From the IMG/VR virus record IMGVR_UViG_3300028394_000035: a stretch of 64,000 bases of DNA; one strand, given 5' to 3'. How positions within the stretch are numbered: position 1 is the stretch's first letter; every line of letters starts with the position of its first letter. Below are positions 38,969 through 54,345 of the stretch, one piece after another. Under the pieces are notes generated by a model, which was not told the DNA's origin, made no database searches, and saw nothing but the letters and a program-made list of their open reading frames with translations. The position numbers were made by a program, and so were the translations under genes. This DNA comes from a virus.

Positions 38969-40741
38969 ATGGCAAAACTTAAGTCTGGTACTAGAATTTA
39001 CGGAACAGCAACGATTGATACAAGTGTTGTTGTAGGTTCTGCCGTAACATTAAGTTCTTCTGGTATTCAAGTTACTGGTATTAGTACTTTAGGTGTTACT
39101 AGTGCAACCAACTTAACATCACAACAGTTAAATGTTTCTGGTATTAGTACTTTAGGTGTTACTAGTGCAACCAACTTAACATCACAACAGTTAAATGTTT
39201 CTGGTGTTTCTACATTCGTTAATGGGCCCATATTAGTAGGAACGGGAACCTCAACAGGAACAGCATCACAACCACTTCAGGTGACTGGTGGTGCTTATGT
39301 ATCTGGTAATCTTGGAGTTGGAACCACAAATCCAGCATATCCTTTACAAGTTCAGGGTAATGCAAGAGTTACTGGTGCTATCTATGATTCTACAAATGCT
39401 CCCGGAACAACAGGTCAGGTTCTTCAGTCAACTATAACTGGAACTTTATGGGCAACTGCTGCTGCTGGTGGTGGTGGTTCTGGTAAGTTTGATACATCGA
39501 TTGATAATGTAATTTATGTTCAACCAACAGGAACATTAGATATTGTTGGTGTAGGTACAACAACCACTCAAATCACAACATTACCATCAGGTTCAAATAA
39601 GTATTTGATTCATTCACTACACGTTACAAATGTATCTAATGGTGATGCAGAAATAACTGCTGGTTTTGTATTGAATGCAAGAAAAGTTCCAGCAACAATC
39701 TCAGTCAGTGTTGGTTCTAGTGGTGGTCCAGGTATTCATACATTCACCGTAGGTTCTGCAAGTAGCATTACTGTTGGTATGGCAGTCACTGGTACTGGTA
39801 ATATTGGTGAAACGACAGGTATTGGTTCTACTGCTGGATTCCAGTTTAATACTTATGTAACCAGTGTAGACGGAACTACTATTACATTAAGCAAACCGAT
39901 GAGTGGTTATGCAACTGGTACTTTATTCTTCTCACCAATATCTAAAGTTTCATCAAGACTTCCAGTTCCTGTTGGTTCTGCTGTTGAATTACTGAAACAA
40001 CCGATGATTTTGAATGCATTAGACAGTATTGTGCTACAATCTACTGGTGCAGGTTCTGGTATTGGTTCAACATCAACGGCAGCAATTACCCAAGCAGGAA
40101 ACTCTAACATTCTTACAGTTGCCGCAGGTGCTGCGATTACAAACTTCCTTTCTTCTGGAATGTTAATTCAACCAACTGGTAATAATACTGGCATTCAAAC
40201 TAATACTTTTGTGGGTGTTGGTTATACTCCTGGTGCATTATCAATTCCTATGACAAGACCAACAACAGTAGCACTTGCATCCACATCACTTTCATTCACA
40301 GAAGTTGTTACACCCCAAGACGGTGCATTACAAGTCACTGTTGTTTATCAATCATCAACCGATACTTCCTATCTCAATGGTACTGGAACTGTTGTTGCTA
40401 TTTCTTCAAATACTACATCAGTAACTGCAGGCCTCTCAACAATTCCTGTTGCTTATTATTCAACAGGAACTTCCTTCCCATCAGTCGTTCAGTCCATAAG
40501 AGTTTCAAATATCTCTGATGGTTCTATCTATCCTGGTGGTGATTATCCAGTCTCCGTAGGTATTGGTAATAGTGATACAATATTCTCTTGGTTGGCATAT
40601 AATATGGTAATTCCAAAGAACTCTTCAATTGAACTTTGCGAAGCACCAAAAAGATTGGGAATCGGACAATCTATCTTTGCATCATCAAGCACACCAAACG
40701 CAATAGAAATACAAATCGCAGGAAAACAAAAAACTTCTTAA
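38969..40741 (+). CDS. Tail-associated protein with fibre repeats and two domains related to the 6654/24080 family
   Basis: Two copies of the 21-aa repeat; IHSLHVTNVS...PVGSAVELL.QP and VQSIRVSNIS...IPKNSSIELC..P domains. Confidence 0.6.
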   Translation: MAKLKSGTRIYGTATIDTSVVVGSAVTLSSSGIQVTGISTLGVTSATNLTSQQLNVSGISTLGVTSATNLTSQQLNVSGVSTFVNGPILVGTGTSTGTASQPLQVTGGAYVSGNLGVGTTNPAYPLQVQGNARVTGAIYDSTNAPGTTGQVLQSTITGTLWATAAAGGGGSGKFDTSIDNVIYVQPTGTLDIVGVGTTTTQITTLPSGSNKYLIHSLHVTNVSNGDAEITAGFVLNARKVPATISVSVGSSGGPGIHTFTVGSASSITVGMAVTGTGNIGETTGIGSTAGFQFNTYVTSVDGTTITLSKPMSGYATGTLFFSPISKVSSRLPVPVGSAVELLKQPMILNALDSIVLQSTGAGSGIGSTSTAAITQAGNSNILTVAAGAAITNFLSSGMLIQPTGNNTGIQTNTFVGVGYTPGALSIPMTRPTTVALASTSLSFTEVVTPQDGALQVTVVYQSSTDTSYLNGTGTVVAISSNTTSVTAGLSTIPVAYYSTGTSFPSVVQSIRVSNISDGSIYPGGDYPVSVGIGNSDTIFSWLAYNMVIPKNSSIELCEAPKRLGIGQSIFASSSTPNAIEIQIAGKQKTS

Positions 40742-40744
40742 TTT

Positions 40745-41398
40745 ATGAGTATTCTTATATCATTACCTTGTTATGGTGGATTGGTGAATGAAAAAACCAC
40801 CACATCACTTTTCAATCTTGGTAAACTTTTAGTTCGTAATAATATAGACCACGGAATAATGACTGTTGCAAATGAGTCTTTGATTACTCACGGACGGTCA
40901 AGAATTGCAAACTTCTTTGTGAATAATACAGAGTTTGAGTATCTGTTCTGTCTGGATGCTGATGTTGCATTTTCACCAGAAGATATGTTGAAGTTATATT
41001 CATATCAAAAACCAATTGTGTCTGCATCTTATCCTATGAAGACACTCCCAATACGACACTGTTATGAACTTTATAATCCTGTAAAGTTATGTGGAAATCT
41101 TGTGAAGATTGGTGGAATTGGTATGGGTTTTGTATTAATTCATAGAAGTGTCTTTGAGAAACTAAATAAACATTATAGTGAATTAAAGTATTTTCCAGGA
41201 TTGAATAATTCAAACTATCCAATTACTGAAAAAGAATATCATAATTCATATCACTACTTTGCCGAAATGAATAAGGAAGGAAAATACTTGGGAGAAGATA
41301 TGAGTTTCTTTCATCGTGTAAGTGATATTGGTTATGATGTTTGGATGGATACAAGTATAGAATTACAGCACATCGGTTCTCACGTATTCGGTAAGTAA
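40745..41398 (+). CDS. GT-A fold glycosyltransferase-like protein
   Basis: ISLPCYGG, R.RIANFF, LFCLDAD (DxD), GMGFVLIHRSVF, GEDMSF, IELQHIG. Confidence 0.75.
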   Translation: MSILISLPCYGGLVNEKTTTSLFNLGKLLVRNNIDHGIMTVANESLITHGRSRIANFFVNNTEFEYLFCLDADVAFSPEDMLKLYSYQKPIVSASYPMKTLPIRHCYELYNPVKLCGNLVKIGGIGMGFVLIHRSVFEKLNKHYSELKYFPGLNNSNYPITEKEYHNSYHYFAEMNKEGKYLGEDMSFFHRVSDIGYDVWMDTSIELQHIGSHVFGK

Positions 41399-41400
41399 AA

Positions 41401-43257
41401 ATGGCAATTGGAGTATTTGGTCTACAAGTTGCTTATAGATTGAAGAGACTTGAGGTGATGAGTCTTGATGATACTTACGGTTGGTTTGGTGGCGGACAGA
41501 ATTTTCCAACAACATATTCAACAGTAGGCCGTATAGATTTCTCTAATGATACTGGAACTGCAAATATTAGAGGTCCTTTAAGTTCAGTAAGATATTCATT
41601 AGGAGCAACAGGAAACTCTAACTATGGTTGGTTTGGTGGTGGTTATGTTCCAGGAACTCCAACAGGTACAGTAGTAGCAACAGTAGATCGTATAGATTTC
41701 TCTAATGATTCTGCAACAGCATCTCCAAGAGGTCCATTAAGTTTAGTAAGGAGACAATTAGCAGCAACAGGAAATTCTAATTATGGTTGGTTTGGTGGTG
41801 GTGGATCATTATCCATAGTAGACCGTATAGATTTCTCTAATGATTCTGGAACAGCATCCCCAAGAGGTCCATTAAGTTTAGCAAGAAATACTTTAGTAGC
41901 AACAGGAAACTCTAACTATGGTTGGTTTGCTGGTGGAAGAACTATATCAACAGTAGATCGTATAGATTTCTCTAATGATTCTTCCACAGCATCAATAAGA
42001 AGTCCGTTAAGTGCAACAAGACAAAATTTAGCAGCAACAGGAAACTCTAACTATGGTTGGTTTGGTGGTGGTGGTGGTCCATTAGCAACAGTAGAGCGTA
42101 TAGATTTTTCTAATGATTTGGCAACAATATTACCAAGAGGTCCATTAAGTTTAGCAAGAAGAGAATTGGCAGCAACAGGAAACTCTAACTATGGTTGGTT
42201 TGGTGGCGGTAATTTTCCAGCAATAGTATCAACAGTAGACCGTATAGATTTCTCAAATGATTCTTCAACAGCATCAGTTAGAGGTCCATTAAGTTCTTCT
42301 GCGTATCGTTCAGCAGCAACATCAGGACAAGCAAAAGGACCAGCAATCAAACTGCAAAAAGCAGGGAATTATGGTTGGTTTGGTGGCGGATCTCCTTCTA
42401 GTGGAGTATCAACAGTAGATCGTATAGATTTCTCTAATGATTCTGTATCAGCATCACCAAGAGGTTCATTGTCCTCCTCACAAAGTTCTTTAGCAGCAAC
42501 AGGAAACTCCAACTATGGTTGGTTTGGTGGTGGATTTGCTTCTCCATCATCATCTATATCAATAGTAAGCCGCATAGATTTTTCTAATGATTTTTCTACA
42601 GCATTAGGAAGAGGTGCATTAAGTTTAGCAAGAAATTATTTGGGAGCAACAGGAAACTCTAATTATGGTTGGTTTGGTGGCGGTTCAGTTGGCACAGGAT
42701 CTGGAATATCAACAGTAGATCGTATAGATTTCTCAAATGATTCTCCAACAGCATTATCAAGAGGTCTATTATTTGCAAGAAGTAAAGTATCTGCAACAGG
42801 AAACTCTAACTATGGTTGGTTTGGTGGTGGTGGTCCAGGATCATTGGCAACAGTAGACCGTATAGATTTCTCCAATGATTTAGCAACAGCATCACCAAGA
42901 GGTCCATTAAGTTTAGCAAGATCAAGCACATCTGCAACAGGAAACTCCAACTATGGTTGGTTTGGTGGTGGAGACAATGGAGCATTATCTGCATATTCAA
43001 TAGTAGACCGTATCAATTTCTCCAATGATTCTGTAGCAGCAGTAGCAAGAGGTCAATTAGTTGTTGCGAGATATTACTCATCAGCAACAGGAAACTCTAA
43101 CTATGGTTGGTGGGGTGGAGGTGAATTTGGTGGTGGTTCTCAAACATCAACAGTAGAACGTATAGATTTCTCTAATGATTTGGCAACAGCATCACAAAAA
43201 AGTCCATTATTTTTGCAAAGAAATCAATTAGCAGCAACATCAAACACCCCAACATAA
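41401..43257 (+). CDS. Kelch-like double beta-propeller protein 1 (2 x 6 repeats)
   Basis: 12 copies of ATGNSNYGWFGGG-loop-STVDRIDFSND..ASPRGPLS.AR..LA with a linker after repeat 6. Confidence 0.8.
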   Translation: MAIGVFGLQVAYRLKRLEVMSLDDTYGWFGGGQNFPTTYSTVGRIDFSNDTGTANIRGPLSSVRYSLGATGNSNYGWFGGGYVPGTPTGTVVATVDRIDFSNDSATASPRGPLSLVRRQLAATGNSNYGWFGGGGSLSIVDRIDFSNDSGTASPRGPLSLARNTLVATGNSNYGWFAGGRTISTVDRIDFSNDSSTASIRSPLSATRQNLAATGNSNYGWFGGGGGPLATVERIDFSNDLATILPRGPLSLARRELAATGNSNYGWFGGGNFPAIVSTVDRIDFSNDSSTASVRGPLSSSAYRSAATSGQAKGPAIKLQKAGNYGWFGGGSPSSGVSTVDRIDFSNDSVSASPRGSLSSSQSSLAATGNSNYGWFGGGFASPSSSISIVSRIDFSNDFSTALGRGALSLARNYLGATGNSNYGWFGGGSVGTGSGISTVDRIDFSNDSPTALSRGLLFARSKVSATGNSNYGWFGGGGPGSLATVDRIDFSNDLATASPRGPLSLARSSTSATGNSNYGWFGGGDNGALSAYSIVDRINFSNDSVAAVARGQLVVARYYSSATGNSNYGWWGGGEFGGGSQTSTVERIDFSNDLATASQKSPLFLQRNQLAATSNTPT

Positions 43258-43281
43258 ATACTTGAAACTACATTATTACTG

Positions 43282-43890
43282 ATGAAGCAGAACATTATTA
43301 TTGTTGATAATTTCTATGAGAATCCATATGAAGTTCGTCAATATGCACTAAATCTTGAGTATCCACAACCAGAAAATCATACATATCCAGGTAGAAACTC
43401 AAAAGGAACTTTCTACAATCAAGAGATTCACGATAAGTTTGAGAATCTGATTGGAAGACATTTAGTTCCTGCTGATTGTGGTAATCACGGAGACTTTAGA
43501 TTATCATTAGAAGCAGATACATTTCAACAAGATATTCATATTGACCCAATCTGGGAATGGGGTTGTGTTCTTTATATGAATCTACCTCATCAGGTTATTG
43601 ATGAGGCAGGAACATCTTTCTGGAAACATAAAAAACTGGGATGGGAAAGATGCCCTGAAAGAGAAGAAGCATCTTGGTTTGGTTATAGTTCTTATGATGA
43701 AATCCGTGATGGCATTATCTACGGTGATGGACTTGACCGTTCCAAGTGGGAGAGATACTGTTTGGCAAATATGAAGTATAATAGAGCAGTTATATTTGAC
43801 CCAAAACTCTGGCACTCGCACGGAGCAAACTTTGGAGATAGTTTAGAAAATGGTAGATTAGTTCAATTGTTCTTCTTTAATAATGCATAA
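43282..43890 (+). CDS. 2OG-Fe(II) oxygenase-like protein (DUF6445-like)
   Basis: IIIVDNFYENP..VR..AL, IHID (HxD), GCVLYM, GTSFW, YNRAVIF...WHS. Confidence 0.75.
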   Translation: MKQNIIIVDNFYENPYEVRQYALNLEYPQPENHTYPGRNSKGTFYNQEIHDKFENLIGRHLVPADCGNHGDFRLSLEADTFQQDIHIDPIWEWGCVLYMNLPHQVIDEAGTSFWKHKKLGWERCPEREEASWFGYSSYDEIRDGIIYGDGLDRSKWERYCLANMKYNRAVIFDPKLWHSHGANFGDSLENGRLVQLFFFNNA

Positions 43891-44713
43891 GACTTATTTT
43901 TTTGAGAGTGGATTACCTCGTTCTGGTTCTACATTACTTTCTGCAATTCTAAATCAAAATCCAGACATCCACTGCGGTGCGATTTCTCCTGTATTGGAGA
44001 TTATGTATTATACAGAGCAATACTTTGAAGGTTCAGAGCAGGCACTTGCATATCCAAAACCAGCACAGCATTATAAGATTATTTCAAGTGTGATTGATAA
44101 TTATTATGATGATATTGATAAACCAATCGTAGTGGATAAGTGCCGTGCTTGGCCCAATAATGTTGACCGACTACAAGAATACATCACAAAGACTCCAAAA
44201 ATTCTGTGCCCTGTAAGAGATGTAGTAGAGATTCTTGCATCTTTTATTCAAATGATTCATCGCAATTCCAATCAAGTATCATTCGTAGATAAGGCACTCA
44301 TAGAGAAGGGATATGAACCAACAGATGATAATAGGTGTGATTACCTAATGTGCCCCGAAGGTATTGTAGACCAGTCCTTATATGCCTTTGGAGAGGGGTT
44401 TAATAAAGGTTGTGAGAAGTATATGCATATGATTGAGTATAATGACTTGGTGAATCGTCCAGAAGAGACGATGCACAAGGTTTATAAGTTTTTAGAGATT
44501 CCTGAATACAAACACGACTTTGGAAATGTAAGTCATAAATACAGGGAGAGAGATGATGAGGTTTACGGATTGAGTGATATGCACGAAGTTCGTAAGCAAG
44601 TGAAAAGAACTTCTAAAAGACCTGAAGAAGTTTTGAGTGATTATGTATTGAATAAGTATTCTGGTATGGAATTTTGGAGAAAGGCAAAACAACCCATCAG
44701 CCTTTTCATATAA
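43883..44713 (+). CDS. Sulfotransferase family protein
   Basis: FFESGLPRSGSTLLSAILNQNP (PAPS-binding loop), VRDVVEILASF, IEYNDLV..PEETM.KVY.FL. Confidence 0.85.
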   Translation: MHKTYFFESGLPRSGSTLLSAILNQNPDIHCGAISPVLEIMYYTEQYFEGSEQALAYPKPAQHYKIISSVIDNYYDDIDKPIVVDKCRAWPNNVDRLQEYITKTPKILCPVRDVVEILASFIQMIHRNSNQVSFVDKALIEKGYEPTDDNRCDYLMCPEGIVDQSLYAFGEGFNKGCEKYMHMIEYNDLVNRPEETMHKVYKFLEIPEYKHDFGNVSHKYRERDDEVYGLSDMHEVRKQVKRTSKRPEEVLSDYVLNKYSGMEFWRKAKQPISLFI

Positions 44714-44717
44714 TTAA

Positions 44718-46676
44718 ATGACTATCAATAATAACAATATATTTGGTGTATTTACTCTTAATGAAGCAAGAGGGTCAAGACTGACTGGTGATTGGTTGAA
44801 TAAAGAGTTTGTTGCGAATTATGGTTGGTTTGGTGGTGGTTCTCTGGGCACTTCACCAGTAACAGTATCATCAAGAGTAGACCGTATAGATTTCTCTAAT
44901 GATTCTGTATCGGCATCACCAAGAAGTCCATTAAGTTTAGCAAGATATGGTTCAGCAGCAACAGGAAACTCTAATTATGGTTGGTTTGGTGGGGGTTATT
45001 ATCCTGCTCCTCTACTAGCAGATCCTCCTTATCTATCAACAGTGGATCGTATAGATTTCTCTAATGATTCTTCAACTGCACCAATAAAAGGTCCATTAAG
45101 TTTAGCAAGAGTTAGTTCCGCAGCAACAGGAAACTCTAATTATGGTTGGTTTGGTGGAGGTAATTATTACCCTTCTGGTGGTCCTATTCCAAAAACATCA
45201 TCAGTAGACCGTATAGATTTTTCAAATGATGCTTCCACGGCATCACCAAGAGGTTCATTAAGCGCAGCAAGATATGGGTTAGCAGCAACAGGAAACTCTA
45301 ATTATGGTTGGTTCGGTGGTGGTTTTCTTCCTGGATCAACATCAACAGTAGATCGTATAGATTTCTCTAATGATACTTCCACGGCATCACCAAGAAGTCC
45401 ATTAAGTTTAGCAAGATCTTCTTTAGCAGCAACAGGAAACTCTAATTATGGTTGGTTTGGTGGTGGTGGTCCTGGACCAGTATCAAGAGTAGACCGTATA
45501 GATTTCTCAAATGATTTAGCAACAGCAACAGCAAGAGGTCCATTAAGTGCAGTAAGATCTTCTTTAGCAGCAACAGGAAACTCTAACTATGGTTGGTTTG
45601 GTGGTGGTTATACTCCAACAACAGTATCAACAGTAAACCGTATAGATTTTTCTAATGATTCTTCCACGGCATCACCAAGAAGTCCATTAAGTTTAGCAAG
45701 GGCTTCAACTTCAGCAACCTCAGGAGTTCTCAATATTCGCAGACAAAAAGCAGGGAATTTTGGTTGGTTTGGTGGTGGTTCAGCTCCTGGTCTACAACCA
45801 ACCAATAGATCTTCAGTAGACCGTATAGATTTTTCTAATGATTCTTCCACAGCATCACCAAGAGGAAATATATTAAGTGCAGCAAGATATAATCTAGCAG
45901 CAACAGGAAACTCTAACTATGGTTGGTTTGGTGGTGGTTATTCCTTTCCACCAGCAACAAGACATTCACTAGTAGACCGTATAGATTTCTCAAATGATTC
46001 TGCAACGGCATCAGTAAGAGGTCCATTAAGTACAATAAAGATGAATTCAACTGCAACAGGAAACTCTAATTATAGTTGGTTTTTTGGTGGAAAGATTACT
46101 ATTAGTCCACAAACAACAACAGCAATAGTAGACCGCATAGATTTCTCAAATGATTCTGTAACGGCATCACCAAGAGGTCCATTAAGTGTATCAAGATATG
46201 GTTTAGCAGCAACAGGAAACTCTAACTATGGTTGGTTTGCTGGTGGTTCTGATAATTCATTTGTTGATTATTCAAGAATAGATCGTATAGATTTCTCGAA
46301 TGATAATGGAACAGCATCACTAAGAAGTGTATTAAGTGGTTCAAAATATAATCTAGCAGCAACAGGAAACTCTAATTATGGTTGGTTCGGTGGCGGTATT
46401 CCTGGACCAGGTTCAATTTCAAAAATAGATCGTATAGATTTTTCAAATGATACTGCAGGAATACTGTCAAGGGGTCTATTAAATGTAGCAAGAAGAAATT
46501 TAGCAGCAACAGGAAATTCCAATTATGGTTGGTTTGGTGGTGGAGATGCTTTTCCTGCAAAGTATTCAACAGTAGAACGTATCAATTTCTCTAATGATTC
46601 TATATCAGCATTGCCAAGAGGATTATTAAATACAGAAAAATTGGGTTTAGCAGCAACCTCAAACACTAACAAATAA
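44718..46676 (+). CDS. Kelch-like double beta-propeller protein 2 (2 x 6 repeats)
   Basis: 12 copies of the same repeat with different loops. Confidence 0.8.
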   Translation: MTINNNNIFGVFTLNEARGSRLTGDWLNKEFVANYGWFGGGSLGTSPVTVSSRVDRIDFSNDSVSASPRSPLSLARYGSAATGNSNYGWFGGGYYPAPLLADPPYLSTVDRIDFSNDSSTAPIKGPLSLARVSSAATGNSNYGWFGGGNYYPSGGPIPKTSSVDRIDFSNDASTASPRGSLSAARYGLAATGNSNYGWFGGGFLPGSTSTVDRIDFSNDTSTASPRSPLSLARSSLAATGNSNYGWFGGGGPGPVSRVDRIDFSNDLATATARGPLSAVRSSLAATGNSNYGWFGGGYTPTTVSTVNRIDFSNDSSTASPRSPLSLARASTSATSGVLNIRRQKAGNFGWFGGGSAPGLQPTNRSSVDRIDFSNDSSTASPRGNILSAARYNLAATGNSNYGWFGGGYSFPPATRHSLVDRIDFSNDSATASVRGPLSTIKMNSTATGNSNYSWFFGGKITISPQTTTAIVDRIDFSNDSVTASPRGPLSVSRYGLAATGNSNYGWFAGGSDNSFVDYSRIDRIDFSNDNGTASLRSVLSGSKYNLAATGNSNYGWFGGGIPGPGSISKIDRIDFSNDTAGILSRGLLNVARRNLAATGNSNYGWFGGGDAFPAKYSTVERINFSNDSISALPRGLLNTEKLGLAATSNTNK

Positions 46677-46681
46677 ATATT

Positions 46682-48415
46682 ATGAAATCAGGAGCAAGTG
46701 AAAGTTCTTATTTTTTTCTTGAAGAATATTATAAGTTTCCAGAAAATATTATAGTTTCTCATTTACCACAAGAACTTCAACAATCAAATAAACCAATTAA
46801 AATTTTATGGTCGCAACATTCTTACGACCAACCAGTATATCTTAACTTTGATTTTTCAATTTGTGATTTAATTGTCTCTCCATCCAACTGGTGTCGAGAG
46901 CAGTTTATTAAGTATCATCACATTCCAGAAGATAAAATCGTCACAATTCCAACAGGAGTATCAAAGCAATTCACATACTCATCAAAAAAATCAAAGACAT
47001 TCATTTATACTTCCATACCATATAAAGGTCTTGAAGTATTAGCACAAATCATTCCACATATTCCAGAGGCAACATTCAAGATTTTTTCTGCGATGAATCT
47101 TTATGATATTACAGAAGACCCATACACAGAACTTTATGAGTATCTCAAATCACTTCCAAATGTAATATACTCACCAGCAGTAGACCAAGCAGAACTGATA
47201 GAGCACTTGCAGGATGCAGCATTCTTTATTCATCCAAACATCTGGGAAGAAACATTCTGTGTTTCTCTTGCAGAGGCTATGTCTTGTGGATGCTTTCCAA
47301 TTCTTACAGATATTGGAGCACTTCCAGAAGTTTCTAATGAGATTGCAAATATTGTTCCTATGGAAGGAACAAGAACTTCAAGTGGGTATAAAATAACAAA
47401 TAACTTCCTAAATAACTTTATAGATGCCTGTAAATCTGCATTATATTTCTTTGATACTGATAGGCAGTACTACGACCAAATTTCAAAATCTGTTTCACGT
47501 TATGCTACTGAAACTTATGATTGGAAAAAAATTGCAAACGTTTGGAAACAAACATTAGAACCATTTAATACACAAACTATGACTGAAAATTGTAACCAAC
47601 TGCAAATTATTTCCCCAGAGGAAGCAGTAAATAACGAAAAATACCTACAACAAGCATTTGAAGAAGTGCTTCGTTGGGAAGATGCAGATAAAGAACTCGC
47701 ACAAGGAAGAACCAATTTCCAGATTGAGAAGTTCTTTCTGTTAGAGCAATACACAGTTCCAGCAGCATTCCAAGCAGCAATCAAGAATCGTCGTATTCTT
47801 GCCGAAGGTTATATGCAGAAACTGATTGAGATGAAAGAAAAGGTTCGTGAGTTTGAGTATCGTTGGAAAGGTAAGAATACTGATGAACCCGTAGAGTGGA
47901 ATACTTCTGGACCTAATGGTGGTTCAACAAAACTCTACTGGCACGATTTGGATTCAATCTCAACTCAAAACTACTTGAAGTCTTGTGAGTTGGAGATTCG
48001 TGACCGCATTCAGCAAATGAATTTCTTTGATAAGATTATTAACAAACTGATTGAACTGAATGGTGGTAAGACAGTCACCAAAGAACAGTTTGAGAATGAG
48101 GACCATATCTATTGGGAACGCAGATTTGCCGAGCAATCTCTGGATGAAATGGTAAGTTCCAAGACTGGTATTAGTATTGGTAATCTTCACTCTATGAGAA
48201 GAGGAACTGCTCCTACATTAGTGAGTGATGATGCAAACAGAATCAAGAATGGTTATGGAGCTCTTGCCGATGCAATTAATGACCCTGATAAGTTCTTGAA
48301 TACACTACAAGAGAAAGTTCTTCGTGGTATTGAAGAAGTGACGAATACTGATTTAGGTTTGCTTGCACCTGGAGCAGAACAGCATCAACAACTTTTAGAA
48401 TCCAGAAACTCATAA
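46682..48415 (+). CDS. GT4 (GT-B) glycosyltransferase fused to a C-terminal helical domain
   Basis: FIYTSIPYKGL, IHPNIWEETFCVSLAEAMSCGC..ILTDIGALPE (EX7E). About 280-aa charged helical C-terminal region. Confidence 0.8.
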   Translation: MKSGASESSYFFLEEYYKFPENIIVSHLPQELQQSNKPIKILWSQHSYDQPVYLNFDFSICDLIVSPSNWCREQFIKYHHIPEDKIVTIPTGVSKQFTYSSKKSKTFIYTSIPYKGLEVLAQIIPHIPEATFKIFSAMNLYDITEDPYTELYEYLKSLPNVIYSPAVDQAELIEHLQDAAFFIHPNIWEETFCVSLAEAMSCGCFPILTDIGALPEVSNEIANIVPMEGTRTSSGYKITNNFLNNFIDACKSALYFFDTDRQYYDQISKSVSRYATETYDWKKIANVWKQTLEPFNTQTMTENCNQLQIISPEEAVNNEKYLQQAFEEVLRWEDADKELAQGRTNFQIEKFFLLEQYTVPAAFQAAIKNRRILAEGYMQKLIEMKEKVREFEYRWKGKNTDEPVEWNTSGPNGGSTKLYWHDLDSISTQNYLKSCELEIRDRIQQMNFFDKIINKLIELNGGKTVTKEQFENEDHIYWERRFAEQSLDEMVSSKTGISIGNLHSMRRGTAPTLVSDDANRIKNGYGALADAINDPDKFLNTLQEKVLRGIEEVTNTDLGLLAPGAEQHQQLLESRNS

Positions 48416-48426
48416 GGAGAAAGTAG

Positions 48427-50664
48427 ATGCCCCCAGCAGGAGATGTATTTGGGCTAGATGGTATTTTTCTTACCAAATCAAATCCAGTTGTTGTTTCTAC
48501 GATAGGAATTAATTCCACTGCTGCTGGTGCTGGTATTACTGTTGTGAGTGGAGTTTTAAATACTACTGCTGGTATTGCAACTCTCACCTTTTCAACTGCT
48601 GCTGGTCTTTCTACAACACCTTTTTATATTGGTGCAAAGATTGCAGTTTCAGGTCTTGGTGCTGCTGGCGTAGCATATACTGGATATAATGGAAATTTTG
48701 TAGTCACAGGATTTGCAGGAACTACAACAGTTTCTTATGCGACTACTGGTTATGTTGGTGGTGTAACTGCAAGTATTACAGGTCAAACTGGTTTGGTAAT
48801 GTTAGTGACTGATACTGCTGTTACGAATACTACTTGGAGTAGTGCTCAAACTCACGGTTGGTTTGGCGGCGGTAGTCCTGGACCAGTATCATCAACAGTA
48901 GGCCGTATAGATTTCTCTAATGATACTGGAACTGCAAATATTAGAGGTTCATTAAGTGCAGCAAGATATTCATTAGGAGCAACAGGAAACTCTAACTATG
49001 GTTGGTTTGGTGGCGGTGTAGACGCCAATGACATTCCCATTTTAATATATTCAACAGTAAACCGTATAGATTTTTCTAATGATTCTTCCACAACATCCAT
49101 AAGAGGTCCGTTAAGTGCAGCAAGATATTCATTAGGAGCAACAGGAAACTCTAATTATGGTTGGTTTGGTGGTGGTTATACTCCAGGACCAGCAGCAGTA
49201 TCAACAGTAGACCGTATAGACTTCTCAAATGATTCTTCAACAGCATCACCAAGAGGTCCATTAAGTACTCGTAGAGAACAATTAGCAGCAACAGGAAACT
49301 CTAATTATGGTTGGTTTGGTGGTGGTCTAAGTTATCCTTCTACATTTTCAACAGTAGACCGTATAGATTTCTCTAATGATTCTGCAACAGCATCTCCAAG
49401 AGGTCCATTAAGTTTAGCAAGGAGACAATTAGCAGCAACAGGAAACTCTAATTATGGTTGGTTTGGTGGTGGTCAAAGTTTTCCTCCTACATTTTCAACA
49501 GTAGACCGTATAGATTTCTCTAATGATTCTTCTACAGCATCAGTCAGAGGTCCATTAAGTTTAGCAAGATATAGTTCAGCAGCAACAGGAAACTCTAATT
49601 ATGGTTGGTTTGGTGGTGGCAGTGGACCAGTATCAACAGTAAACCGTATAGATTTCTCAAATGATACTGGAACAGTAAATATTAGAGGTCCATTAAGTGC
49701 AGCAAGAAATAGATTAGCAGCAACATCAGGACAAGCAAGGTCTTCAAGCACTCGTCTACAAAAAGCAGGGAATTATGGTTGGTTTGGTGGTGGATTTGCT
49801 TTTCCATTATCAACAGCAACAGTGGACCGTATAGATTTCTCTAATGATTTAGCAACAGCAACAGCAAGAGGTCCATTAAGTGCAGTAAGATCTTCTTTAG
49901 CAGCAACAGGAAACTCTAACTATGGTTGGTTTGGTGGTGGTTATACTCCAACACCAGCAGTATTATCAACAGTAGACCGTATAGATTTCTCTAATGATTC
50001 TGCAACAGCATCACTGAGAGGTCCATTAAGTTTAGCAAGGAGACAATTAGCAGCAACAGGAAACTCTAATTATGGTTGGTTTGGTGGTGGTATTACTCCA
50101 GGGCCAGTAGCATTAGCAATAGTAGACCGTATAGATTTTTCTAATGATTCTTCTACAGCATCAGTCAGAGGTCTATTAAGTTCAGCAAGAGGTTCTTTAG
50201 CAGCAACAGGAAACTCTAATTATGGTTGGTTTGGTGGCGGGTTATCTCCTGGACCAACAATTGTATCAACAGTAGACCGTATAGATTTCTCTAATGATTC
50301 TTCCACGGCATCACCAAGAGGTCCATTAAGTTTAGCAAGATATCTTTTAGCAGCAACAGGAAACTCTAACTATGGTTGGTTTGGTGGCGGGATATCTCCT
50401 GGACCAACAATTGTATCAAGAGTAGACCGTATTGATTTTTCAAATGATTCTTCCACGGCATCACCAAGAGGACCATTAAGTTTAGCAAGACTGAATTTAG
50501 CAGCAACAGGAAACTCTAATTATGGTTGGTTCGGTGGTGGTTATCCGGCAGTAGCAACAGTAGACCGTATAAATTTCTCTAATGATTCTGTATCGGCATC
50601 ACCAAGAGGTCCATTAAGTGCTGCAAGAGGATATATGGGAGCAACATCAAACACCCCAACATAA
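48427..50664 (+). CDS. Kelch-like double beta-propeller protein 3 (2 x 6 repeats) with N-terminal small beta domain
   Basis: 12 repeats after a roughly 140-aa Thr/Gly-rich N-terminus. Confidence 0.8.
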   Translation: MPPAGDVFGLDGIFLTKSNPVVVSTIGINSTAAGAGITVVSGVLNTTAGIATLTFSTAAGLSTTPFYIGAKIAVSGLGAAGVAYTGYNGNFVVTGFAGTTTVSYATTGYVGGVTASITGQTGLVMLVTDTAVTNTTWSSAQTHGWFGGGSPGPVSSTVGRIDFSNDTGTANIRGSLSAARYSLGATGNSNYGWFGGGVDANDIPILIYSTVNRIDFSNDSSTTSIRGPLSAARYSLGATGNSNYGWFGGGYTPGPAAVSTVDRIDFSNDSSTASPRGPLSTRREQLAATGNSNYGWFGGGLSYPSTFSTVDRIDFSNDSATASPRGPLSLARRQLAATGNSNYGWFGGGQSFPPTFSTVDRIDFSNDSSTASVRGPLSLARYSSAATGNSNYGWFGGGSGPVSTVNRIDFSNDTGTVNIRGPLSAARNRLAATSGQARSSSTRLQKAGNYGWFGGGFAFPLSTATVDRIDFSNDLATATARGPLSAVRSSLAATGNSNYGWFGGGYTPTPAVLSTVDRIDFSNDSATASLRGPLSLARRQLAATGNSNYGWFGGGITPGPVALAIVDRIDFSNDSSTASVRGLLSSARGSLAATGNSNYGWFGGGLSPGPTIVSTVDRIDFSNDSSTASPRGPLSLARYLLAATGNSNYGWFGGGISPGPTIVSRVDRIDFSNDSSTASPRGPLSLARLNLAATGNSNYGWFGGGYPAVATVDRINFSNDSVSASPRGPLSAARGYMGATSNTPT

Positions 50665-50688
50665 ATACTTGAAACTACATTATTACTA

Positions 50689-51339
50689 ATGAATTTATTA
50701 TCCAAAGTTTTGATTGCACCAAAAGTCATCAGTCAAGAAGGTATTGATGCTCTGGTAAATCATATGAAAACTTCCAAGACCGAAGACCTTTCAGTATTTG
50801 ACCCAGACAAATCCAATCAGACACGAGGAACTGAATGGATTACTGATAAGAGAACAAGAGATACTCAAATCGCACCAATTGAACCTGTATTTCCACAGGT
50901 CAACGAATTGATGCATCACATTGTAAAGCAAGTCATCAATCCTTTTTATCAGTTTGAAGTTGATAGTAGTGAGGTTCCACAACTTCTTTGTTATGATGTA
51001 GGAGGACACTACCAGCCTCATATTGATGGTGAAGGTGTATGGACTGCACCAGACCAAACACAACTTTGGAGAAAGACGGTAGACCGAGATTTGTCAATGG
51101 TCTTATATTTGAATGATGAATTTGAAGGTGGAGATTTTGTATTTCCAGACCTTCATATTCGCATTCGTCCTGAGCCTGGACTTCTTGTTTGTTTTCCTTC
51201 TAATAGGTATTATAGACACGGAGTAGAACAAGTCACAAAAGGAAACCGATATTCTATGGTGACTTGGATGACTGTAAAAGGATTTGAGAGTATGGAAACA
51301 CAATCAAATAATCTCAAATCTAAATATGGAGTATGCTAA
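50689..51339 (+). CDS. 2OG-Fe(II) oxygenase, prolyl-4-hydroxylase/PKHD-like
   Basis: GGHYQPHID, LSMVLYLNDEFEGGDF, CFPS...HGV..VTKGNRYSMVTW: HxD...H...RxS. Confidence 0.9.
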   Translation: MNLLSKVLIAPKVISQEGIDALVNHMKTSKTEDLSVFDPDKSNQTRGTEWITDKRTRDTQIAPIEPVFPQVNELMHHIVKQVINPFYQFEVDSSEVPQLLCYDVGGHYQPHIDGEGVWTAPDQTQLWRKTVDRDLSMVLYLNDEFEGGDFVFPDLHIRIRPEPGLLVCFPSNRYYRHGVEQVTKGNRYSMVTWMTVKGFESMETQSNNLKSKYGVC

Positions 51340-51345
51340 AGAAAA

Positions 51346-51906
51346 ATGATTACTTATACTTGGAGTATTTCTAAATTGGACTGTGCTCCATTAGAAAATG
51401 GGTTAACAAACGTAGTTAAAACCATTTATTGGGGACTTACAGGAACAGATGAGAACGGTGTATCAGCATCTATGAGTAATTCTTATCCTCTTTCATCACC
51501 AAGTCCAGAAGGATTTGCTGATTATTTGACTCTTACAGAGGAAGATGTGATTGTCTGGTTGGAAAGCAATCTTGATGTTGGGTATATAAAAACAAAACTT
51601 TCTAATGAAATTGCATCTCAATATAATCCTCCAATCACTTCATTACCTTTTCCTTGGGTAAAGATAGAAGAACCTGTTATAGTAGAAGCAACTGAAGAAG
51701 TTGTAGTAACTGAAGAACCTATTGCAGAAGAAGTTGTAGTAACTGAAGAACCTATTACTGAAGAAGTTGTAGTAACTGAAGAACCTATTGCAGAAGAAGT
51801 TGTAGTAACTGAAGAACCTATTGCAGAAGAAGTTGTAGTAACTGAAGAAGTTGTAGTAACTGAAGAACCTGCAACTAAAACACTTGACACCTTCAAGATT
51901 CTATGA
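51346..51906 (+). CDS. Tail-associated small protein with an acidic repeat tail
   Basis: MITYTWSISKLDC...NVVKTIYW..TGTD N-terminus; EEVVVTEEPI repeats. Confidence 0.65.
   Translation: MITYTWSISKLDCAPLENGLTNVVKTIYWGLTGTDENGVSASMSNSYPLSSPSPEGFADYLTLTEEDVIVWLESNLDVGYIKTKLSNEIASQYNPPITSLPFPWVKIEEPVIVEATEEVVVTEEPIAEEVVVTEEPITEEVVVTEEPIAEEVVVTEEPIAEEVVVTEEVVVTEEPATKTLDTFKIL
51694..51876 (+). repeat. 33-bp (EEVVVTEEPIx) tandem repeat, 4 full copies plus partials
   Basis: Direct reading. Confidence 0.9.
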
Positions 51907-51912
51907 TATTGT
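51884..51912 (+). promoter_or_regulatory. Sigma70-type promoter
   Basis: TTGACA 51884-51889, 17-bp spacer, TG-a-TATTGT (-10 at 51907-51912). Confidence 0.6.
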
Positions 51913-51918
51913 ATAAAA

Positions 51919-52025
51919 GTCTTGAAGGTCTTTGTGACTTTGAGACCTCAAGACCTGTTCTGGTGGTGGAAAGAACAGTTATATAAACATAAAGTTGTAG
52001 GAGTGGTATCCTACAACTTTTTTTT
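51919..52025 (+). ncRNA. Candidate structured small RNA (two hairpins plus terminator)
   Basis: Stem 51919-51931/51943-51954 with one bulge; perfect CTGTTCT/AGAACAG stem with a GGTGGTGGAA loop; terminator; no credible ORF. Confidence 0.55.
51991..52025 (+). terminator. Rho-independent terminator
   Basis: AAAGTTGTAGGA-gtggta-TCCTACAACTTT, a perfect 12-bp stem, followed by a T run. Confidence 0.9.
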
Positions 52026-52039
52026 GTGTCTTATGATAC

Positions 52040-52068
52040 TTGACAAACTCATCAAAAGTCACTAAAAT
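52040..52068 (+). promoter_or_regulatory. Sigma70-type promoter
   Basis: TTGACA 52040-52045, 17-bp spacer, TAAAAT 52063-52068. Confidence 0.75.
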
Positions 52069-52191: not shown

Positions 52192-54345
52192 ATGTCTCTT
52201 ACACACGAAGTTCGTGGTTCTTTAGCAAGATGTTTAGCTACTGAAAATATTATAGTAGAACATAAAGATGTAGATACTGCGATGTTTGATGTAGATAAAC
52301 GCATTCTAACTTTACCTAATTGGAAAAAAGCAAGTGATGTAGTATATCAAATGTTGATTTTACACGAAACATCACACGCAATCTTTTCTCATAATCTTGA
52401 TTATACCGAAGAATACGAAAATTTAATTGGTTATCACGACGTTGTAAATGTAGTTGAAGATGCTCGTGTTGAGAAGTTAATGAAGAAAAAGTATCCTGGT
52501 GCATCCAGAACTTTTTATACTGCATATAATGAACTGAATGCAGATGATTTCTTCTCTACAAAAGATGAAAATTTGAATGAATTATCTTTGATAGATCGTA
52601 TTAATCTTTACTTCAAGATTGGTGCATTTCATCAAATCGCATTCAACGATACTGAAGACGAATTCATTTCTCGTATCTGTAGTGCAGAAACATTTACTGA
52701 TGTACTTGAAATCTCACAAGATTTAGTTGCTTATGCAAAGAAAAAGAAAGAAGAACAGCAATCTTCTTCTGGTTGTGATAATAAAGAGAATTCAAGTTCT
52801 TCTTCACAATCTGCACCATCACCAACTGATGATGGTACTCAAGGAGAAACTGAAAATTCAAATCAGGAAGACCATAATGGTAGAAGTGATGACTCAACTG
52901 TGAAAAGTAAAACTCAATCATCTTCTGGTGGTGGAGTCAAACCTGATAACTTTGGTGGTGATAAGAATGCTGAATTGGATGAGTTGGAATCAAAAACTAC
53001 AAAATCTTTTGATGAAAAATCAAAAGAACTCAATCAACCAAAAAGTGATTACAACGAAACTTCATATGTAGAATTGCCAAAATTTGATATGAATATACTC
53101 ATTCTTCCTAATGAGTATATTCATCGTCTTTCTCGTCGTTATTATACGCAACCTATACATAAAGATTATTTGAGTAATCAAAAAGTTTCTTATAATGAGT
53201 ATAAGAAATCAGCAGAAAGAGAAGTTTCTTATCTTGTAAAAGAATTTGAATGTAAGAAATCAGCAGATGCCTATGCTCGTTCAAGTACTGCAAGAACTGG
53301 TGTATTGAATACATCAGTATTGCATACTTATAAGTATAATGAAGATTTATTCAAAAAAGTATCAGTATTACCTGATGGTAAAAATCACGGTTTGATATTT
53401 ATTTTAGATTGGTCTGGGTCTATGGCTGATTATTTGTTAGATACTTATAAGCAACTTCTCAATTTGATTTGGTTCTGTCGTAAAGTAAATATTCCTTTTG
53501 AGGTTTATGCCTTTACCGAAGATGCAAATGCATATTTGGAATTTGATCCTAATCATACTCCAACTTATGAGAAGAAGGAAAATGTATTATGCCCTGATGA
53601 AAAGTTTCGGTTGATGAATATCTTTACCGGTAAAGTAAGTAATAGGGAATTGGATGAGCAATTGCTACATTTCTGGGCAATTTGTTCTGCATATCAATCC
53701 AGGTATGGTTATGTTCCAGGTCATCTCATTCTTTCTGGAACTCCATTAGGTGAAACTATGATGGCTCTCAATTCATTACTTTCACAATTCTTTGCTTCTT
53801 ACAAAATACAAAAAGCAAATGTGGTATTTCTTACTGATGGTGAAGGTAGGGTAAATCCTCATTCAGTATTCAGGAAACATTATGAAACAGATTATGAGTA
53901 TTTGAGTCATAGGTATAGCAAGAATACTGTAATTCGTAATCGTAAAACAGGTCGTATGTATCCTTCATATGATGCTAGTTCATTCCCAGAATACGTAAAA
54001 GTGCTGATGTCTTATACCAAAGATTTATTCCCAAATGTAAATCTCATCAATTTTCGTATTGCTCCTACAAAAGACCTTAGTAGTTGCTATCATTCATATG
54101 GAACACCTACAATTCCTTATGATAAAATCAAAGAACAATTTCGCAAAAACAAATTTGTGTCATTTGATAAATCTGGTTTTGATAAGTTCTTTGTTCTTTC
54201 TGCTAATAGTATGAATGGTGATACTGATCTAAATGTAGATAGTGGATCTAGTAAAACTGCAATCAAATCTGCATTTACAAAAATGCTGAAAAACAAAAGA
54301 ACAAACAAGAAAGTTCTTGGTGAATTTGTATCTCTAATCTGCTGA
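52192..54345 (+). CDS. Metallopeptidase-like (HExxH) / VWA protein, CobT-like partner of the AAA+ ATPase
   Basis: LHETSH; NVVEDARVE; acidic/Ser linker; FILDWSGSM (MIDAS DxSxS); GTPL; FLTDGEG. Confidence 0.85.
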   Translation: MSLTHEVRGSLARCLATENIIVEHKDVDTAMFDVDKRILTLPNWKKASDVVYQMLILHETSHAIFSHNLDYTEEYENLIGYHDVVNVVEDARVEKLMKKKYPGASRTFYTAYNELNADDFFSTKDENLNELSLIDRINLYFKIGAFHQIAFNDTEDEFISRICSAETFTDVLEISQDLVAYAKKKKEEQQSSSGCDNKENSSSSSQSAPSPTDDGTQGETENSNQEDHNGRSDDSTVKSKTQSSSGGGVKPDNFGGDKNAELDELESKTTKSFDEKSKELNQPKSDYNETSYVELPKFDMNILILPNEYIHRLSRRYYTQPIHKDYLSNQKVSYNEYKKSAEREVSYLVKEFECKKSADAYARSSTARTGVLNTSVLHTYKYNEDLFKKVSVLPDGKNHGLIFILDWSGSMADYLLDTYKQLLNLIWFCRKVNIPFEVYAFTEDANAYLEFDPNHTPTYEKKENVLCPDEKFRLMNIFTGKVSNRELDEQLLHFWAICSAYQSRYGYVPGHLILSGTPLGETMMALNSLLSQFFASYKIQKANVVFLTDGEGRVNPHSVFRKHYETDYEYLSHRYSKNTVIRNRKTGRMYPSYDASSFPEYVKVLMSYTKDLFPNVNLINFRIAPTKDLSSCYHSYGTPTIPYDKIKEQFRKNKFVSFDKSGFDKFFVLSANSMNGDTDLNVDSGSSKTAIKSAFTKMLKNKRTNKKVLGEFVSLIC

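Follow-up and report, generated by a model that had tools for sequence, protein, structure and literature searches.

Which molecules would a phage modify with two oxygenases, two glycosyltransferases (GTs) and a sulfotransferase whose genes lie among those of three large repeat proteins? The question is raised by positions 40745-51906 of a 64,000-nucleotide (nt) stretch of viral DNA, IMG/VR record IMGVR_UViG_3300028394_000035; the whole stretch that was analysed is called the window below. This part of it is best explained as the end of a late tail-fibre operon of an S-SKS1-like T4-type cyanophage, and the gene set probably builds a chemically decorated virion surface. The interpretation that we favour, tentatively but as a very real possibility, is that the repeat proteins, which are predicted propellers, or neighbouring fibre proteins are hydroxylated, glycosylated and sulfated by the co-made enzymes before virion assembly. 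No published description of this gene set was found in the literature.

Gene content and enzyme families

The array consists of nine open reading frames, all on the + strand, with the following features.

40745..41398, + strand: g1, GT-A-fold glycosyltransferase of 217 amino acids (phrog_1574; profile match to A197 of Sulfolobus turreted icosahedral virus, STIV)
41401..43257, + strand: propeller 1, 618 amino acids with 12 Kelch-like blades (6+6), recognised from its repeats and an AlphaFold2 (AF2) model of the C-terminal half
43282..43890, + strand: g3, DUF6445/Syn9-gp52-family 2-oxoglutarate (2OG)-Fe(II) oxygenase of 202 amino acids (Pfam PF20043)
43883..44713, + strand: g4, sulfotransferase of 276 amino acids of the type that uses 3′-phosphoadenosine 5′-phosphosulfate (PAPS) (Sulfotransfer_3)
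44718..46676, + strand: propeller 2, 652 amino acids with 12 blades, recognised from its repeats
46682..47578, + strand: N-terminal part of g6, GT4 (GT-B) glycosyltransferase domain (Glyco_trans_1_4; E-x7-E)
47579..48415, + strand: C-terminal domain of g6 (6C), about 278 amino acids, of unassigned fold and module-specific
48427..50664, + strand: propeller 3, 745 amino acids, a 137-amino-acid N-terminal extension followed by 12 blades (repeats; weak Kelch_3 match)
50689..51339, + strand: g8, prolyl 4-hydroxylase (P4H)-like, PKHD-type 2OG-Fe(II) oxygenase of 216 amino acids (2OG-FeII_Oxy_3)
51346..51906, + strand: g9, DUF7936 plus an acidic tandem repeat, peripheral

Intergenic gaps, in array order, are 2, 24, −8 (an overlap), 4, 5, 11, 24 and 6 nt. 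An earlier description of the window made from its letters, here called the first-pass annotation, had reported nine co-oriented, closely spaced genes in the order GT-A enzyme, propeller, DUF6445 protein, sulfotransferase, propeller, GT4 fusion, propeller, P4H-like oxygenase and acidic-repeat protein. The layout held, with every gap at 24 nt or less, and the family order was borne out by Pfam and profile matches. The grouping of all nine genes as one unit stood only in part: the propellers and the five enzymes recur, whereas g9, whose acidic repeat is EEPI(A/T)EEVVVT, is confined to close relatives, is absent from divergent loci and falls outside the conserved set, which we call the module.

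Profile comparison matched g1 to the crystal structure of the STIV A197 glycosyltransferase (2c0n) with an E value of 3.7e-9, and its D71-x-D73 sequence is an invariant DxD motif of the kind found in GT-A enzymes; no Pfam GT model matches g1. The capsid protein of STIV, the virus whose glycosyltransferase g1 resembles, is glycosylated. The second GT, the N-terminal part of g6, scored 44.2 bits against Glyco_trans_1_4 (cut-off 27) and 41 bits against Glycos_transf_1 (cut-off 26.4), and its E-x7-E motif is present as E-ETFCVSLA-E; the N-terminal Rossmann half is short and falls below the cut-off (Glyco_transf_4, 27.1 versus 28.5). The 6C domain that follows contains many invariant charged residues and is represented by about 145 representative clusters among 1.8 billion proteins. 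It had no match in Pfam, PHROGs, the PDB (by profile) or the ESM Atlas, and ten distant homologues drawn from the 1.8 billion proteins were without any Pfam domain. S-SKS1 and many marine sequences have the domain on its own, and within the phage collection it is restricted to propeller-carrying phages.

The g4 protein scored 56.4 bits against Sulfotransfer_3 (PF13469; E 6.6e-15; cut-off 27) and carries both PAPS-binding motifs, the PRSGST 5′-phosphosulfate-binding (5′-PSB) loop (GLPRSGSTLL) and R-x7-S (RDVVEILAS). Its nearest solved proteins are the tyrosylprotein sulfotransferases TPST1/2 (E 3.5e-7), matched mainly over the PAPS loop. For g8, the score against 2OG-FeII_Oxy_3 (PF13640) was 62.8 bits (E 6e-17; cut-off 27) and the HxD...H...RxS signature is complete, comprising H-I-D, the distal histidine in YYRHG, and R-Y-S. 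The PDB proteins closest to g8 are P3H1, Bacillus anthracis P4H, P4HA2 and PiuC, the PiuC type being one whose substrate is not known. Full-length g8 orthologues at more than 50% identity occur only in phages that carry the module.

The other oxygenase, g3, scored 49.3 bits against PF20043 (E 7.8e-13; cut-off 24) and is 26.5% identical to Syn9 gp52; its HxD motif (HID) and distal histidine (WHSH) are kept across orthologues. A search of the PDB with the DUF6445 profile found no relative. In most lineages a second, shorter DUF6445 paralogue lies right after the 6C domain (positions 13072-13602 of locus L027, 15808-16386 of L031, 1407-1940 of L036 and 3603-4190 of L010). These short paralogues lack the HxD iron ligands in the alignment and, judging from this, may be non-catalytic partners. 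In the lineage of the window the short paralogue has been lost from the array.

One alternative explanation is that the product of the enzymes is a small metabolite or peptide carrying sulfate or sugar, as has been suggested for dioxygenase arrays of cyanophages, and that the propellers bind or present it or are unrelated neighbours. In its favour, g3 is a member of the Syn9 gp52 family. Iyer et al. (2010; PMC2938197) discussed this family as classical 2OG oxygenases and assigned it, together with sets of dioxygenases and sulfotransferases, to secondary-metabolite or peptide modification. However, the module contains no nonribosomal peptide synthetase, ATP-grasp, halogenase or precursor-peptide gene, it sits in a late tail-fibre operon, and its linkage is to large propeller proteins rather than to biosynthetic scaffolds. 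We regard a metabolite or peptide product as improbable.

Repeats, fold and loops of the propeller proteins

Each propeller protein contains 12 repeats of about 48 amino acids in two sets of six joined by a short linker, and the 36 repeats of the array are 45-60 amino acids each. The consensus is ATGNSN-YGWFGGG-[loop]-STVDRIDFSNDS.TAS.RGPLS.AR..L, in which YGWFGGG ends strand B and provides the GG doublet of a Kelch repeat. Pfam gave a single Kelch match, to Kelch_3 and in propeller 3 alone, that remained below threshold (21.5 bits versus a cut-off of 22). Matches of the propellers to FAM183 and Circovir2_Orf4 were rejected as repeat artefacts. An AF2 model of the full 618-amino-acid propeller 1, built with 16 sequences, had a predicted local distance difference test (pLDDT) score of 47 over its N-terminal half and was replaced by a model of one six-blade half. 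This model, of the six repeats of the C-terminal half with 48 half-propeller sequences, reached a pLDDT of 89 and a predicted template modelling (pTM) score of 0.90. Foldseek matched it to KLHL12, KLHL17 and Keap1 (E 1e-21; template modelling score 0.85-0.90), and its viral fold neighbours included S-SKS1 proteins, a Kelch protein of BcepSaruman and proteins of phiKZ-like phages labelled ‘virion structural proteins’ in BFVD. By this model the propellers are of the six-bladed Kelch type and form a divergent subfamily that is recognised by fold rather than by sequence model.

Assignment of the strand register with DSSP placed the variable stretch after GGG in the B-C loop and a second variable patch (AR..L) in the D-A loop, both on one face of the model. 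In Keap1, the B-C and D-A loops form the ligand-binding face. The first-pass annotation had counted proline by hand in 30 of 36 loops, and a scripted count of the loops after GGG returned exactly this number. Proline accounts for about 14-18% of the loops versus 3.9-5.4% of the whole propellers. Loop composition is kept in seven deep lineages despite full sequence turnover, with proline at 10-24%, serine plus threonine at about 20% and charged residues at 5-9%. A composition of this kind, rich in proline, serine and threonine (P/S/T) and poor in charge, is atypical of a lectin site. All three propeller proteins contain zero cysteines. An AAGGAG Shine-Dalgarno sequence lies upstream of propeller 3.

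Multi-propeller proteins of distant lineages share the N-terminal motif G[IV]F[GS]L..VY..Q..G.W, a candidate docking peptide. In locus L046, from a phage of 147-260 kb, a second-site propeller protein carries N-terminal TIG and He_PIG Ig-like domains (9224-11017), and right after its gene is a small fibre gene with an endosialidase-chaperone (S74) domain (11044-11688). The N-x-S/T sequon in the conserved SND(S/T) turn of the repeats was considered as an N-glycosylation site and rejected, since it is not universal: T-D-T takes its place in some lineages. The turn itself resembles a structural hairpin of the Asp-box-like kind.

Selection and recombination

Selection was compared across the window and eight close IMG/VR relatives. 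The enzymes are 88-96% identical in amino acid sequence, with ratios of nonsynonymous to synonymous substitution rates (dN/dS) of 0.02-0.12 (0.02-0.08 for g1); the propellers are about 65% identical, with dN/dS of 0.4-0.7. Within the propellers the corresponding ratio of nonsynonymous to synonymous differences (pN/pS) was 1.3-1.5 in the B-C loops (1.47 in propeller 1) and exceeded 1 in 21 of 21 pairs, although indels and exchange of blades among paralogues influence these values; in the framework it was about 0.5. Synonymous divergence (dS) was alike for propellers and enzymes. A collection of 5.8 billion proteins contained more than 1100 clusters of propeller homologues, nearly all of them singletons at 90% identity and all unnamed. 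The enzyme-domain clusters hold tens of members each.

Blade exchange is visible in the DNA itself. Positions 45520-45630 of propeller 2 and 49853-49963 of propeller 3 are 95% identical, versus about 75% for other blade pairs, and this similarity indicates recent gene conversion between the two paralogues. Minimal arrays containing the GT-A enzyme, one six-blade propeller (308 amino acids), the P4H-like oxygenase and DUF7936 were found in two loci (L041, 75-1004; L042, 778-1707) and look like products of recombinational deletion between propeller genes.

Taken together, the Kelch fold, a loop pN/pS above 1, the singleton clusters, the absence of cysteine, the N-terminal motif and the fusion to Ig-like domains argue that the propellers are exposed, interacting proteins.

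In the main rival explanation the propellers are receptor-binding proteins, and the enzymes remodel host envelope glycans (lipopolysaccharide, S-layer or extracellular polysaccharide precursors) late in infection; the receptor would be masked or destroyed, so that progeny are not trapped on debris or superinfection is blocked. Polysaccharide pathways typically use GT-A, GT4 and sulfotransferase enzymes, an NCBIfam search gave sub-threshold matches only, including weak ones to EpsE and NoeE, and a link to receptor-binding genes would explain the synteny described below. Cyanophage GT clusters are also usually read as host-surface modifiers (PMC12801897). The module, however, has no flippase, polymerase or priming transferase, no transmembrane segment was predicted in any array protein, and the enzymes are predicted to be soluble. 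Enzymes that remain 88-96% identical while the presumed receptor-binding loops diverge are the opposite of what receptor-matched enzymes would be, glycan remodelling offers no clear role for two hydroxylases of the protein type, and predicted late promoters with a position in the structural operon would be unusual for exclusion functions. We consider modification of host glycans unlikely, if still a serious contender.

Conservation of the module

The first-pass annotation had proposed a survey of propeller homologues for neighbouring GT, 2OG oxygenase and sulfotransferase genes, and the outcome was strongly positive. A forward search with propeller 2 identified 48 viral loci with the same array, the more divergent of which contained the same families in another order. 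The reverse search, with the 6C domain alone, identified 60 further loci at 46-65% identity; all but two short fragments contained propellers together with the GT-A enzyme, the GT4-6C protein, one or two DUF6445 proteins, the sulfotransferase and the P4H-like oxygenase. Module genes in the surveyed loci are all on one strand. They form recurrent blocks (GT-A, GT4-6C and short DUF6445; DUF6445 and sulfotransferase; a terminal P4H-like gene) in shuffled order, with propeller proteins of 320-1930 amino acids, or one to six propeller units, between them. S-SKS1 carries the module wrapped around the ends of its record. The marine Kyanoviridae virus AG-345-L05 has the module too, its enzymes being about 50-55% and its propellers about 26% identical. 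The set recurs in more than 100 aquatic phage contigs.

In the phage collection, close orthologues of g1, g3, g4, the 6C domain and g8 occur only in propeller-carrying phages, and the survey found no phages with close enzyme orthologues that lack the propeller, nor the reverse. Among 185,579 prokaryotic species genomes, the propeller turned up only in two tiny contigs of metagenome-assembled genomes. A megablast search of the whole array against 50,697 phage records returned nothing; relatives are detectable at the protein level only. The tight linkage, confirmed in both search directions, speaks for a functional unit over a chance accumulation.

The contrary view is that there is no functional coupling, and that the repeated propeller genes merely attract recombination, as hot spots within a hyperplastic region, with unrelated accessory genes collecting between them. 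The shuffled block order, the blade-level exchange at 95% DNA identity between propellers 2 and 3, and the resemblance of the L041 and L042 arrays to recombinational deletions speak for it, as does the description of 2OG oxygenases as generic cyanophage accessory genes (PMC3037559). Yet more than 100 contigs, recovered in both search directions, have propellers in company with the same five enzyme subfamilies, even where identity has fallen to 46% for 6C and about 25% for the propeller; all of the enzymes are under strong purifying selection; and their close orthologues were not found elsewhere in the phage collection. A lack of coupling thus appears quite improbable.

Two kinds of neighbouring gene were found in relatives. 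APS-kinase-like genes (PF01583; APS, adenosine 5′-phosphosulfate) adjoin the module at L034 8999-9790 (− strand), G002:C1:69288-69551 and G004:C1:69736-69819, which suggests that some of these phages may supply their own PAPS; no such gene is present in the complete close relative G001 (213 kb) or in S-SKS1. Tail fibres with collagen-like G-x-Q repeats lie beside the module at L079 4547-7669, L127 1079-4390, L117 656-4423 and L068 18755-20830, and have up to 104 triplets and 0-10% proline. Collagen-like tail fibres were rejected as the P4H substrate: the window contains no G-X-Y collagen run, and the fibres of the relatives are G-x-Q repeats with this low proline content.

Operon layout and transcription signals

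The window is part of a T4-like cyanophage-type genome, and its 19-41 kb region is packed with genes matching baseplate, tail-fibre and virion structural PHROGs. The features that bear on transcription of the array are listed here.

38969..40741, + strand: upstream fibre-like structural gene, 590 amino acids, ending 3 nt before the array start
43253..43281, + strand: late-promoter-like CATAAATA and conserved leader before g3, with the motif kept in all 8 relatives
50660..50688, + strand: late-promoter-like CATAAATA and conserved leader before g8, with NATAAATA kept in all 9 phages
51991..52020, + strand: intrinsic terminator with a 12-bp stem and T run, closing the late operon; the sole strong terminator, after g9

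That the array directly continues the tail-fibre operon, as had been proposed, is confirmed by the 3 nt that separate its first gene from the fibre-like gene. Homologues of the C-terminal part of this 590-amino-acid protein lie immediately before the module in S-SKS1 and AG-345-L05, and tail-fibre PHROGs match genes upstream of the array both in the window and in divergent loci. Across the survey the module always came after genes for tail fibres. The contiguous + strand genes after the fibre gene, and the position of the only strong terminator at 51991-52020, identify the array as the tail end of a late structural operon.

Three late-promoter-like motifs had been reported, and copies of ATAAATA are present at 43254, 46673 and 50661. 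The copies before g3 and g8 are kept in all relatives, whereas the one before g6 is not conserved and was treated as a chance occurrence. NATAAATA lies about 21 nt upstream of the ATG of both oxygenase genes, and this fixed distance is kept while the flanks diverge; the junction between propeller 1 and g3 is near-identical to the junction that precedes g8. Across the window as a whole the ATAAATA motif is not enriched. Conservation of NATAAATA before both oxygenase genes, together with the lack of a strong terminator until 51991, supports late, structural-operon expression of the array.

Late expression bears on two further explanations. In the first, the propellers are intracellular adaptors, similar to poxvirus or Cul3-Kelch proteins, that capture variable host proteins such as defence factors for modification or inactivation by the enzymes. 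Kelch domains are classic protein-binding modules, and hypervariable loops would suit such an arms race. Counter-defence genes, however, are usually early, and the late timing and structural operon are against this role, as are the conserved docking-like N-terminal motif, the Ig-domain fusion and fibre context in a relative, and the cysteine-free composition. We find intracellular adaptors scarcely probable. In the second, which the first-pass annotation had given as an alternative, the enzymes hypermodify phage DNA through base hydroxylation followed by glycosylation, as 2OG oxygenases of the TET/JBP type and GTs do in other phages according to the work cited in PMC12619734. The oxygenases of the array are of the P4H/PKHD and DUF6445 types, not TET/JBP, and the genes lie in the late fibre operon rather than among replication genes. 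In addition, DNA is not known to be sulfated. On enzyme family and operon position, DNA modification is very unlikely.

Downstream of the array, a phrog_459 peptidase and a cobS-like AAA protein are encoded at 52-55.5 kb. Sigma-70-like promoters at 51884-51912 and 52040-52068 flank the terminator, between the late operon and the peptidase gene (52192-54345), which lies just past it. Relative to locus L004, dS is about 1.8 in the peptidase gene and about 0.2-0.3 in the array, a difference that places a recombination boundary where the late operon ends. Farther upstream, at 19116-21608, the window encodes an 830-amino-acid protein with a Gly-rich C-terminal region (GGxGGx and GAAGAAG runs), for which one unannotated PHROG match was the only one found.

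A proposed decorated virion surface

We propose that the three Kelch propeller proteins dock on the virion, at a fibre or the baseplate, through a short conserved N-terminal peptide, where they would serve as variable units that bind the host surface or form a coat. The five soluble, conserved enzymes would be made at the same time and would act in the cytoplasm, before assembly, on new propellers or on neighbouring fibre proteins. An action on virion proteins would agree with the late co-expression of the array, with the solubility of the enzymes and with their conservation beside loops that vary. The enzyme families, which comprise hydroxylases of the protein type, glycosyltransferases and a sulfotransferase, are consistent with an order in which hydroxylation would come first and provide acceptors, and sugars and sulfate would follow. 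Because the enzymes stay conserved while the loops turn over, they would be expected to recognise the conserved framework or a short P/S/T motif. The APS-kinase neighbours and the conserved P/S/T-rich loops also count in favour of protein modification. The virion location, the identity of the substrate, and the order and chemistry of the modifications are thus what we infer from the genes.

In a more specific form of this proposal, the array and its relatives encode a self-contained protein-modification pathway that combines two hydroxylations with two glycosyl transfers and a sulfation, in some cases has its own APS kinase, and produces a mucin-like, glyco-sulfated propeller layer on the tail or virion. 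Conserved enzymes would then recognise the framework or short P/S/T motifs, and the loops would diversify for host binding or shielding. No virion glycoprotein system of a bacteriophage before this one would have been sulfated, and none would have depended on hydroxylation. We consider such a layer conceivable but doubtful.

Several observations weigh against modification of the propellers. The propellers are not proline-rich overall, enrichment being confined to the loops, and one or two prolines among the nine residues of a Kelch B-C loop, often as x-P-G, can do no more than shape a turn. The resemblance of g4 to TPST, resting as it does mostly on the PAPS loop, leaves the class of acceptor unfixed. 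P4H-like and DUF6445-like oxygenases are common in cyanophages without these propellers, and indels and blade exchange enter into the loop pN/pS values. Finally, no covariation was visible between enzyme presence (loss of the sulfotransferase) and the blade consensus, a comparison that is confounded by contig truncation.

Relation to known systems

Giant viruses glycosylate their own surface proteins with viral cytoplasmic enzymes, as in chlorovirus Vp54 and in mimivirus fibrils with the L230 collagen hydroxylase/glycosyltransferase. The system proposed here is similar in that virus-encoded cytoplasmic hydroxylases and GTs would act on the virus's own surface proteins. Giant viruses differ in their eukaryotic hosts and enzyme families and have no propeller arrays and no sulfotransferase in one operon. 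In Dictyostelium Skp1 and in plant extensins and arabinogalactan proteins, a P4H-type 2OG oxygenase makes hydroxyproline that GTs then extend, and the targets are P/S/T-rich. Unlike those targets, the propeller loops have one or two prolines and no extensin-like runs; the enzymes are only superfamily relatives, and a role of proline as acceptor is putative.

Mycobacteriophages provide a demonstrated case in which GT genes glycosylate the virion (Freeman et al., 2023, Cell Host Microbe, as cited in PMC12801897 and PMC12619734). In the account given by these citing papers, phage GT genes lie beside structural genes and are late, virion proteins are decorated in the cytoplasm, and the targets are C-terminal extensions of capsid and tail-tube subunits, modified by GTs only. 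The GT genes of the array likewise adjoin fibre genes on the same strand: no gap exceeds 24 nt, late-promoter-like motifs are conserved, and no strong terminator precedes the end of g9. In contrast to the mycobacteriophages, two 2OG oxygenases and a sulfotransferase are added, the candidate targets are dedicated hypervariable Kelch propellers, and their decoration is a prediction.

Hydroxylation followed by sulfation of co-encoded tail-collar or collagen-like proteins was predicted in bacteria by Iyer, Abhiman, de Souza and Aravind (2010; PMC2938197). Those systems also place 2OG dioxygenases and sulfotransferases, sometimes with PAPS synthesis genes, beside non-enzymatic fibre-like repeat proteins, but they are encoded by bacteria, their enzymes come from the beta-hydroxylase and PhyH families, and their substrates are tail-collar or collagen-like proteins. 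The genes considered here belong to phage late operons and include two GTs and Kelch propellers, and the neighbouring collagen-like fibres are G-x-Q repeats that are almost free of proline. A Kelch propeller is a virion protein in phage CBB (CBB_552; PMC5259590). Like it and the phiKZ-like proteins in BFVD, the propellers of the array are predicted to be six-bladed and are fold neighbours by the model; the jumbo-phage proteins are only 12-25% identical and have neither hypervariable tandem arrays nor linked modifying enzymes.

Implications

Phage virion glycosylation is a recent discovery, so far comprising only the tails of actinophage capsid and tail-tube proteins modified by GTs alone. If the proposal is correct, a module of hydroxylases, two GTs and a sulfotransferase acting on hypervariable propellers would widely extend the post-translational chemistry of phages. 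It would also provide a first function for some of the many unexplained 2OG oxygenases of cyanophages. The idea can be put to a direct test in S-SKS1, a cultured member that infects Synechococcus WH7803. Modified propellers would point to a new class of structure, for host recognition or for shielding, in phages that are abundant in fresh water and in the sea. Independently of the chemistry, the contrast between a loop pN/pS above 1 and an enzyme dN/dS below 0.12 identifies the propellers as an interface in an arms race.

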